Below, piece by piece: positions 1-3,404 of a stretch of 16,727 bases of DNA. The notes under the pieces are model-generated. The model was not told the DNA's origin, did not search any database, and saw only the letters and a program-made list of their open reading frames with translations. The DNA lies in NCBI GenBank assembly GCA_040752415.1, contig JBFMGU010000231.1, forward strand, positions 1 to 16,727, read 5' to 3'. A program made the translations under genes and the position numbers. Source of the stretch: Myxococcota bacterium. Lineage in GTDB: Bacteria; Myxococcota; JACRCW01. Position 1 is the stretch's first letter, and every line of letters begins with the position of its first letter.

Positions 1-107
1 GCTTATCTCCGTGCCAACCCCCACTGTCTCTTAGCCCCCCAGCCAGGCATTGTGGCCACGCCGCCTGGCTGGTTTGTTCTTGGGGCCGGGGGGGCGTGGG
101 AGCGCAG

Positions 108-123
108 AGCACGCGCAATGCCA
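108..123 (-). promoter_or_regulatory. sigma54 (-24/-12) promoter for a transcript leaving the left edge
   Basis: Minus strand reads TGGCATTGCGCGTGCT with exact GG-N10-GC spacing. Predicted +1 is near 97. Tandem palindromic sites lie upstream at 167-203. Confidence 0.65.
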
Positions 124-166
124 ACCCACTTCTCGACGGAGAACACATACGAACGCGCGCGGGACC

Positions 167-203
167 TGTCTGAATTTCAGTCAGGGTGACCGAATTCACG
201 ACA
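167..203. promoter_or_regulatory. Tandem palindromic enhancer-binding-protein sites (TGWC-N9-GWCA x2)
   Basis: TGTCtgaatttcaGTCA (167-183), ggg, TGACcgaattcacGACA (187-203). The 20-bp period is the same as at 1329-1365. Confidence 0.65.
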
Positions 204-2093: not shown

Positions 2094-2738
2094 ATGACCG
2101 CGTGGCCGGAGGTGGGGCGAGCGGAGTTGGAGGAGCTGCGCCACAAGTACGAGGTGCTGCTCCGCCTCCACGACGAGCGGGAGGCCGCCGCGGCCGCCGG
2201 ACTGACCGGCTTCTCCGGGGCGGAGCGGGACGCGCGTCGACTCGCCATGAAGCGCCTGGCGGCGCGTTTCCCCGGCGCGCTGCGGGAGCTGGATGCGCTG
2301 GACCGCGCCGCGCTGCTGGACCGACGCCAAGCGCTGCAGGCCGTGCTGGACGCGGCGCCCCCGGAGCTTCCCGGCCTGCTGGCCCAACCCGCCCACACCT
2401 GGATGTCGTGGATGTGGCTCTTCCACGCTCTCACGCGGGAGATGCTGCACGTGAAGCGGAGGCTGGCCCTGCAGGCCCGCGGACTGGTGGAGCGGGGCGC
2501 GGATGGCCGGTGGCCAGAGCCGGCGGTGCTGGGCCCGCAGGGCTACCCGGAGGTGCTGCAGCGGCGCATCCTGGACCCTCCGCGCGGGCACCTCACCCAC
2601 CTCGTCTATGAACTCTTGTCCACGCGACTGGGCTGTCCTGCCCCCACCCTCCAGGAGGCCATCTTCGGCCCACCCAAGGTTCCCGCCGGTGACGCCGCCG
2701 AAAACCAACCGGGGCATACAAACCCTGATAGGGCGTGA
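2094..2738 (+). CDS. Hypothetical helical protein (~214 aa)
   Basis: GC3-biased codons from ATG 2094 and amphipathic helical sequence (LRHKYEVLLRLH, RFPGALRELDAL). No family recognised; start uncertain. Confidence 0.65.
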   Translation: MTAWPEVGRAELEELRHKYEVLLRLHDEREAAAAAGLTGFSGAERDARRLAMKRLAARFPGALRELDALDRAALLDRRQALQAVLDAAPPELPGLLAQPAHTWMSWMWLFHALTREMLHVKRRLALQARGLVERGADGRWPEPAVLGPQGYPEVLQRRILDPPRGHLTHLVYELLSTRLGCPAPTLQEAIFGPPKVPAGDAAENQPGHTNPDRA

Positions 2739-2905
2739 GGCACCACGTATTGCAAGACGCTGTACTTGCTGAGTTCCAATCGTTTGAGCGCTCGCAAACC
2801 CGGGCACAGAAACCCGAACCGCAGGTGCGTGAAGGTAGCCGCCACGGAGACCAAGATGCCGAAAACACGACAGAATGCGGCGCGGGCAAACCGGTCGCCG
2901 GAGCC

Positions 2906-2921
2906 TGGCACGTCGCCTGCT
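2906..2921 (+). promoter_or_regulatory. sigma54 promoter of the putative sRNA
   Basis: TGGCACGTCGCCTGCT, near-consensus -24/-12. Predicted +1 (A2932) coincides with the first base of hairpin 1. Confidence 0.85.
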
Positions 2922-2931
2922 ATCACCCTGG

Positions 2932-3080
2932 ATGCACGGTGCGGCAGGGCGTCAGGACTCCCCCCCCCGGTCCGACGTCCAGTCCGCCGTGCGTTTATCT
3001 CTTGGCAGGTTTCCGGAGGGCAGCTGCGCGGTACCGGTGATCCCCCCCCACCAACCACCGCGGCTGCCCTCCGTTTTTTT
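2932..3080 (+). ncRNA. Putative sigma54-dependent small RNA with two poly-C-loop hairpins (Pxr-like architecture)
   Basis: Hairpin 1 spans 2932-2994 (loop UCCCCCCCCCG). Hairpin 2 spans 3014-3073 (loop AUCCCCCCC). T7 follows. The unit is bounded by a promoter and a terminator. Confidence 0.75.
3014..3080 (+). terminator. Rho-independent terminator (3' hairpin of the putative sRNA)
   Basis: Perfect 11-bp basal stem CGGAGGGCAGC / GCTGCCCTCCG immediately followed by TTTTTTT (3074-3080). Confidence 0.8.
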
Positions 3081-3086
3081 CCCCTT

Positions 3087-3404
3087 CTGATCGCCCTGCT
3101 GGTGACCACGCCGCTCGCGTGTCGCAGCGCTGCCACGCCCGCGCCGCAGGGAAGCGCGCCCGCACGGTCCACGCGCGCCGCCGCGGAGGAGCACCAGCTG
3201 GGCTCACCCCATGCGGTGTGGCTGGACTGCTCGGAGGACGCGCACTGTGCCTCGCGTGCCGGGACGGTGTGTCACGTGGCGGTGATGGGCGGGACCTGCG
3301 CGCCGCCGTGTGACAGCGACGCGCGCTGCAGCAACTTTGGCCTGGCGTGCGTGCAGGGTCGCTGCGGCAGCGCCACGACGACGGACGGCGGCGCCCCGCG
3401 CTGA
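3087..3404 (+). CDS. Cys-rich lipoprotein-like protein; start codon unclear (possibly 5'-truncated)
   Basis: LLIALLVTTPLAC resembles a lipobox. The 8-Cys domain (CSEDAHC...C...CAPPCDSDARC...CVQGRC) is typical of myxobacterial secreted proteins. Codons are GC3-rich. There is no in-frame ATG/GTG between the promoter and the hydrophobic stretch; the start given is an in-frame CTG. Confidence 0.55.
   Translation: MIALLVTTPLACRSAATPAPQGSAPARSTRAAAEEHQLGSPHAVWLDCSEDAHCASRAGTVCHVAVMGGTCAPPCDSDARCSNFGLACVQGRCGSATTTDGGAPR

Follow-up and report, generated by a model that had tools for sequence, protein, structure and literature searches.

A predicted sigma-54-dependent small RNA gene with poly-C-loop hairpins, of Pxr-like design, in an uncultured class of Myxococcota

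The stretch of DNA considered here (the window) is 16,727 nucleotides long and forms contig C148 of a Myxococcota genome, G000 (11.0 Mb, 69% GC, 520 contigs, completeness 96.8%). Within it, a short segment combines a sigma-54-type promoter word with two long hairpins whose loops carry runs of cytosine, closed by a run of T and followed directly by a gene for a small, cysteine-rich, apparently secreted protein; a mechanically called open reading frame runs over the whole arrangement (Table 1). The promoter word comes close to the -24/-12 consensus of sigma-54. It lies, as does the A predicted to be the first transcribed base, where an earlier note made from this DNA alone had placed it, and RNAfold of 2932-3080 returns exactly the succession of a 63-nt hairpin, a 19-nt linker, a 60-nt hairpin and seven T that the same note had described. 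Both of the poly-C loops it reported are present, with a run of nine C in hairpin 1 and one of eight C in hairpin 2. The observation of a promoter and two C-loop hairpins at these positions is confirmed.

Table 1. Features of the element and of the gene that follows it, in window coordinates
Feature	Position	Strand	Remarks
Sigma-54-type promoter (-24 GG / -12 GC)	2906-2921	+	TGGCACGTCGCCTGCT; the extended motif TGGCAC-N5-CTGCTAT reaches 2923
Predicted +1	A2932	+	12 nt past the -12 C (2920); same spacing in all five genome copies
Hairpin 1, 63 nt	2932-2994	+	Unpaired C9 apical loop at 2960-2968; from fold, R2 model and covariation
Linker, 19 nt	2995-3013	+	Opens with a weak U-tract, 2995-3003
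Hairpin 2, 60 nt	3014-3073	+	Eight-C run 3042-3049 in apical loop; from fold, R2 and R3 models
GTG within hairpin 2 apical stem	3037-3039	+	
T7 run	3074-3080	+	Hairpin 2 and T7 form an intrinsic-terminator-like 3' end
Small secreted/lipoprotein-like protein, six conserved Cys	3075-3404	+	From the ORF list and comparison with the G001 and G003 proteins
N-terminal part of the mechanical ORF 2766-3404	2766-3074	+	Not coding

The predicted two-hairpin structure of 2932-3080 has a minimum free energy of -79.9 kcal/mol, against a mean of -54.4 (sd 4.07) for shuffled sequences, and none of 200 shuffles was as stable (z -6.27); the opposite strand is less stable in these terms (z -3.06, with one of 200 shuffles as good). 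Hairpin 2 and the T7 run together have the composition of an intrinsic terminator, a GC-rich hairpin followed by a U-run, and six to eight T follow hairpin 2 at all six of the two-hairpin loci that were compared. The weak U-tract that opens the linker corresponds to a full T7 in the related genome G003, and in four single-hairpin paralogues five to eight T make up a T-rich tail at the same place; the tract is possibly a partial terminator, from which a short transcript of hairpin 1 alone would result. A simple promoter and terminator scan of the region gave no match, which is uninformative because its loop limit of 3-8 nt excludes the 9-nt loops found here. Promoter use, the +1 and the 3' ends of the RNA are predictions from sequence.

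The element is not single in its genome. BLAST of 2880-3100 against G000 gave four weak matches that cover the promoter and the first half of hairpin 1, one of them on contig C20 and three in tandem, about 400 nt apart, on contig C497. In each, the word TGGCAC-N5-CTGCTAT precedes a 60-nt hairpin whose loop is UU-C8, and the T-rich tail already mentioned follows; these single-hairpin units are separate genes, each with its own promoter and U-tail; the family in G000 thus amounts to five genes, one with two hairpins and four with one. Two covariance models built from the hairpin only, with the promoter left out, were run over the 11 Mb. The first (R1) returned five matches and one further at E 2.6; the second (R2) returned six, the sixth being hairpin 2 of the window, and no other credible match, with genome-wide scores of 64.7 bits (E 3.1e-11) for hairpin 1 and 54.4 bits for hairpin 2. 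The extended promoter word, for its part, has five occurrences in the 11.0-Mb genome, both strands counted, and all five sit 26 nt before the start of a hairpin. Since promoter word and hairpin-only model pick the same five loci, the pattern goes beyond chance.

Less can be said of how these promoters would be controlled. The genome holds one rpoN gene and 50 sites of the looser form TGGCAC-N5-YTGCW. No gene for an enhancer-binding protein adjoins any of the five copies, as judged from neighbours scanned at three loci, where no Sigma54_activat protein was found; nor did a common upstream activator site emerge among the five promoters, the best candidate being a 9-mer present in three of them. 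A convergent gene comes after the last of the three tandem copies on C497. On C20, a 65-codon ORF (G000:C20:19148-19345; about 1617-1814 of L002), with GGAG six bases before its ATG, opens about 20 nt beyond the T-run of the sRNA.

Orthologues extend the picture across the class of Myxococcota to which the window belongs. This class is sparsely sampled, with four species-level genomes in the collection that was searched, and all four carry the element as covariance-model matches. In G001, of the same family, and G003, of another, the two-hairpin form is syntenic with that of the window, in the order ferredoxin, RNA, Cys-rich protein. G002 has three loci, two of them (C68 and C87) with two hairpins and the third (C31) with one hairpin and a plain terminator, after which comes a different Cys-rich secreted protein. 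A sixth two-hairpin RNA is found on metagenome contig L128, and L057, from another metagenome-assembled genome (MAG), shows a sigma-54 promoter and three C-loop hairpins followed by a response-regulator gene. The five two-hairpin loci other than that of the window, and the four paralogues, take the same fold (z -4.0 to -8.6), and in all of them the C-runs are left unpaired. Across this material the apical C8-C9 loops are invariant and the stems almost wholly different between families; the base of hairpin 1 alone exists in three distinct sequences, one in G000 and G001, one in G003 and one in G002. An exact pattern for the apex of hairpin 1 was found at 32 loci across genome contigs, four of which are the RNA of the window (in G001-G003 and one MAG); the remaining 28 match by chance and lie mostly in what looks like coding sequence. 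A metagenome scan for promoter and apex together gave 12 loci, and only L128 and L126, the latter with one hairpin and a plain terminator, belong to the family.

The building of a covariance model from homologues had been proposed in the earlier note, and the stems do covary. Over 14 hairpins in a model-guided alignment, 90.8% of cells are paired, whereas shifting the partners by 1-3 columns lowers this to 34-47%; both sides have changed in 16 of 20 pairs, and none of 500 column shuffles reaches any of five measures. These counts lean towards structure, because the alignment was fitted to the model and because it mixes hairpin-1 sequences, hairpin-2 sequences and paralogues. An alignment of the six two-hairpin RNAs made by MAFFT from sequence only recovers nothing beyond the apical stems and the hairpin 2 base, and RNAalifold applied to it keeps 20 pairs with a covariation term near zero. 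The model-guided alignment was relied on because the MAFFT alignment is too diverged for the outer stems.

Searches of Rfam, the Pxr model included, had likewise been proposed, and they leave the novelty of the element standing. In the window no family attains its gathering score; a search of 2700-3300 at E<=10 gives just two weak and irrelevant matches, neither of them on the hairpins; and the hairpins of 11 related loci match no family.

To our knowledge, Pxr is the only characterised sRNA of myxobacteria, and the searchable literature, with subscription papers outside the search, yielded no description of another sigma-54/poly-C-loop sRNA of Myxococcota. Those parts of the Pxr literature that are accessible describe a 108-nt RNA with a sigma-54 promoter downstream of nla19/pxrR and three stem-loops (PMC5684412, PMC5568312). 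A C-to-A change in its first loop (PMC5568312) is there said to abolish function and not RNA accumulation (PMC5684412, PMC5568312). The statement in the earlier note of a critical mutation in a cytosine run fits this, and in a true Pxr locus the loop is C7. The accessible portion of one of these papers also places tandem paralogues in Cystobacter and describes the origin of Pxr as apparently recent, within the Cystobacterineae (PMC5568312), and the available part of a 2025 paper gives its binding targets as still unknown. True Pxr loci were located by using a primer given in PMC5568312 as a pattern, with up to two mismatches, over 401 genomes of the phylum. The pattern occurs in 98 of these, 95 of which are among the 172 genomes of one family. 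Within this Pxr-bearing family, genus g113 (G308:C1:2240012-2241282, G344, G296, G327) has three to five tandem copies of the pattern, spaced by about 300 nt.

One such locus, L098, served as a positive control for the Rfam model of Pxr, RF01812, and scores 109.9 bits with it (the gathering score is 80 bits). Its promoter, TGGCACGACGCCTGCTAT, is one base off that of the window, with 17 of 18 positions identical in the extended motif, and its first stem-loop, SL1, exposes UU-C7. The same model has no match at E<=10 in the whole window genome and none above its cut-off in any of five genomes; a sub-threshold match in G042 (32.5 bits) is a mere terminator after a coding region. Conversely, R2 gives only 14-15.5 bits on Pxr SL1 and has no match in 21 sampled genomes of the Pxr-bearing family. 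As RF01812 is blank genome-wide while its positive control works, the element is not a member of Pxr in the sense of Rfam, and by sequence model it is a family apart, of Pxr-like design. The earlier suggestion of "a divergent Pxr relative or a new sRNA family" is accordingly retained in its second half, with the Pxr-like design, and given up as regards Pxr membership by RF01812.

The likeness to Pxr is nonetheless considerable. Both occur in the same phylum, both have a sigma-54 promoter (a sequence prediction in the present case), and both place beside the transcription start a long hairpin with an exposed loop of U and C; both are RNAs of several hairpins with a terminator hairpin at the end, and both have tandem arrays of paralogues. 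The first loop is a C-run in each, C7 in L098 and, by fold alone, C9 and C8 here. The differences are in the number of hairpins, Pxr having three stem-loops, SL1-SL3, with a conserved 8-bp segment in SL3, whereas the window has two hairpins and the paralogues one; in the neighbours, which are pxrR/nla19 and an NADH dehydrogenase gene for Pxr and a ferredoxin, an unknown ORF and the Cys-rich protein for the window; and in the host, which belongs to another class of Myxococcota.

Small RNAs of other phyla offer further comparisons. We know of no report of a sigma-54 promoter for the actinobacterial sRNA 6C and of no poly-C loops in the Qrr sRNAs of Vibrio; the Qrr sRNAs are Hfq-dependent, and Hfq was not detected in the window genome (96.8% complete). 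6C resembles the element in its C-rich hairpin loops, which in 6C are functional sites, and in coming from a high-GC organism without Hfq; it differs in stemming from a phylum unrelated to Myxococcota and in giving no Rfam match at E<=10 over 2700-3300. The available text on 6C has its C-rich loops bind G-rich ribosome-binding sites without chaperones (PMC6486639). sX13 of Xanthomonas, said in the accessible part of its source to work through C-rich loops, has no sequence or model similarity to the window hairpins. Qrr1-5 are described, in the portions of the sources that are available, as multi-copy, trans-acting sRNAs dependent on sigma-54 and an enhancer-binding protein (PMC3730234, PMC10162802); they share with the element the multiple copies and sigma-54 (predicted here), and differ in that they give no Rfam match in the window.

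The design itself is more widely spread than either family. A class was defined by a strong sigma-54 promoter and at least seven C within 25-55 nt, lying in the apical loop of a long start-proximal hairpin, and the window RNA belongs to it by fold and promoter spacing. The pattern of promoter plus C7 occurs in 22 of 121 Myxococcota genomes, as compared with two for a reversed control pattern, and spans about ten families (f2, f4, f11, f13, f15, f20, f22, f26 and f30, with f1 represented only by G000). Fourteen loci from other genomes were fetched, and 11 of them show a long start-proximal hairpin with the C-run in its apical loop, with a U-run after most; the other three are ordinary 5' regions of protein genes. 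R2 matches at E<=0.01 are found in 14 of 151 genomes, among them multi-hairpin C-loop RNAs in f4 and other families.

A third model, R3, was made from ten first hairpins of families f15, f22, f26, f30, f13 and f4 only. With no more than 8 base pairs it is mainly a model of sequence, and the C-run and the U-tail contribute part of its scores. Over a 57-kb test set the best match is hairpin 2 of the window (35.1 bits, E 2.5e-7), with 17-29 bits for hairpin 2 of five orthologues, 17-22 bits for the four paralogues, 17.7-34.7 bits for Pxr SL1 loci and a non-significant 12.4 bits for hairpin 1 of the window. Across G000 the top match is again hairpin 2 of the window (35.1 bits, E 4.8e-5), and in three of three Pxr-bearing genomes it falls at the pxr locus (E 2.7e-5, 0.013 and 0.085). 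These model scores support a common class for the window RNA and Pxr, whether by descent or by strongly convergent design, homology being unproven. In G308, the best R3 match lies just upstream of four Pxr-pattern matches and may be a further diverged copy.

Two observations on this wider class deserve mention in their own right. A response-regulator-like gene follows directly after the C-loop sRNA, on the same strand, at L142, L143 and L144 (three f15 genomes), at L078 (in G042, of f22) and at L057, which suggests a module of sRNA and downstream receiver-domain gene unlike the pxrR-then-pxr order. In f4, the loci L074, L077, L073 and L069 each have a sigma-54 promoter and encode an RNA some 190 nt long with three successive hairpins, all of which bear a C7-C8 loop; a GAGGAG/CTCCTC stem closes the middle one, and no Rfam family matches these RNAs.

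Taking these lines together, we consider that 2906-3080 is probably a small-RNA gene whose product acts by pairing of its C-loops with G-rich sites on mRNA, the latter part being what we infer of its mechanism. An enhancer-binding protein would activate RpoN-dependent transcription from A2932; partial termination past hairpin 1 would yield a transcript of about 65-70 nt, and full termination past hairpin 2 would give about 150 nt. Pairing with G-rich, single-stranded sites on mRNA, for example G-rich ribosome-binding regions, could then be seeded by the exposed poly-C loops; it would not depend on Hfq, and would either block translation or make the mRNA less stable. Pairing through the C-loops is proposed because it has been shown for 6C and fits the first-loop mutation of Pxr. 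Candidate sites may be present in G000, which has 3,351 runs of at least six G per strand: a crude scan placed 80 such runs 3-8 nt before candidate starts, compared with 30 C-runs and a baseline of about 9 per position, a weak indication that G-rich target sites exist. By our own base-composition estimate, G-runs of this length amount to about a quarter to a third of the number expected in G000; a similar depletion in mycobacteria is noted in the accessible part of the 6C paper (PMC6486639).

The downstream gene invites a different reading, in which the element is a leader acting in cis: the sigma-54 promoter would drive the Cys-rich gene, the hairpin and U-runs would attenuate its transcription, and hairpin 2 would hide the start codon, with protein made only upon read-through and opening of hairpin 2. 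We think this unlikely, and it is the overlap of hairpin 2 with a start codon, along with an oddity of the frame, that earns it such weight as it has. The order of RNA and then Cys-rich protein is kept in G000, G001 and G003, with another Cys-rich protein at G002:C31; the four paralogues and G002:C68 and G002:C87, however, have promoter, hairpin and U-run without such a gene, and attenuation alone does not account for invariant C-loops. The protein of 3075-3404 has no Pfam family above cut-off, and its hydrophobic signal segment starts in the T-run. Hairpin 2 overlaps the apparent 5' end of its gene in two of the three syntenic genomes, those of the window and G003. In G003 only one start is plausible, a GTG lying within the hairpin 2 apical stem, and it yields a normal lipoprotein signal peptide; with this start, the C-run encodes Pro-Pro and the T-run falls inside the signal segment. 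The window has the same GTG, and no ATG, GTG or TTG between hairpin 2 and the signal segment, but the frame from that GTG stops at 3088-3090 and the protein resumes one base out of frame past T7. One extra T in the T-run would put GTG 3037 in frame with the Cys-rich protein, and the break may reflect an error of assembly, a pseudogene or slippage. The protein of G001, for its part, has an ATG of its own about 50 nt after a T8 run.

It is rather improbable, in our estimation, that the loops serve instead as a decoy that sequesters a C-run-binding protein without any pairing to mRNA, much as CsrA/RsmA is bound up by sRNAs with GGA loops. The presence of several identical loops in one RNA, the multiple gene copies and the fixed loops on drifting stems would all suit a decoy, as would a genome in which Hfq was not found, but 6C and sX13, the two studied C-loop sRNAs considered on this point, act or are thought to act through base pairing in the available parts of their sources. 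We hold it very improbable that the copies are untranscribed palindromic repeat DNA, REP-like or derived from the ends of mobile elements, with promoter-like words by their side: they are multi-copy and include a tandem array, but the strand asymmetry of C-run and U-tail is retained in every copy, promoter spacing is exact in five of five, syntenic orthologues across two families of the class have stems that are diverged yet paired, and no transposase lies nearby. That ORF 2766-3404 (212 aa) is coding over its whole length, with the hairpins incidental, is contradicted and can be set aside as next to impossible, because, although the frame is open in table 11 and in G003 runs open from stop to stop through both hairpins, the alignment with G001 and G003 shows no conservation before the Cys-rich domain, all that the three syntenic loci have in common over the hairpins, upstream of the signal segment, is the PPP encoded by the C-runs, the frame in G001 has a stop within hairpin 1, the changes in the stems are compensatory rather than synonymous, and the paralogues sit in other contexts without that frame.

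The want of residue conservation, the stop in G001 and the compensatory changes together argue that 2766-3074 is not coding. The earlier note had held that the RNA is hidden under this ORF, and protein conservation does begin only downstream of the hairpins; it had also set conservation of the frame against conservation of the stems, and what the homologues keep upstream of the signal segment is paired stems and C-loops. Its reading of an independently transcribed sigma-54 sRNA made of poly-C-loop hairpins is thus supported by the paralogues and orthologues, by covariation and by the absence of a conserved frame.

A broader proposition joins several of these elements and is put forward tentatively, as something quite possible that falls somewhat short of probable. 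It holds that Pxr is one branch of an old, phylum-wide set of sigma-54 C-loop sRNAs and that the window RNA is the form this takes in the uncultured class, with a dual function. The first hairpin could offer its C7-C9 loop as a chaperone-free G/C seed; the module would have been doubled in one RNA and amplified to five genes in the window genome; and hairpin 2 would also be the translation-start region of the Cys-rich protein, which would make the transcript both an sRNA and an mRNA leader.

A new covarying sRNA family, absent from Rfam 15, in an uncultured class of Myxococcota, and the recurrence in about ten families of this phylum of a design that combines a sigma-54 promoter, a start-proximal hairpin and a poly-C loop, should provide a comparative handle on C-loop recognition, because conserved G-rich sites can be sought across many lineages. 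The wider distribution also calls for a re-test of the view that Pxr is of recent origin. Myxococcota may be a second independent high-GC lineage, after that of the actinobacterial 6C, where C-loop sRNAs appear to replace Hfq-type regulation.

At its other end, the window holds a further repeated element. Positions 1-190 (-) are the start of a multi-copy repeat with 23 pieces in the genome by BLAST, seen also at L118:1100-1633 (-) and L119:700-1200 (-); 15 of 17 copies of a marker word end 30-130 nt before the end of a contig. No copy of the repeat turned up in G001-G003, no Rfam family matches it, and its fold is not significant (z +0.5). Upstream there are tandem GAATTC-type repeats and then a sigma-54-like TTGGCAY-N5-GTGCT; the conserved unit is of about 330 nt, with a C7 run first, a G6 run inside and a hairpin and T-run last. 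This may be either an RNA gene that is driven by sigma-54 and present in many copies or a mobile repeat of small size.
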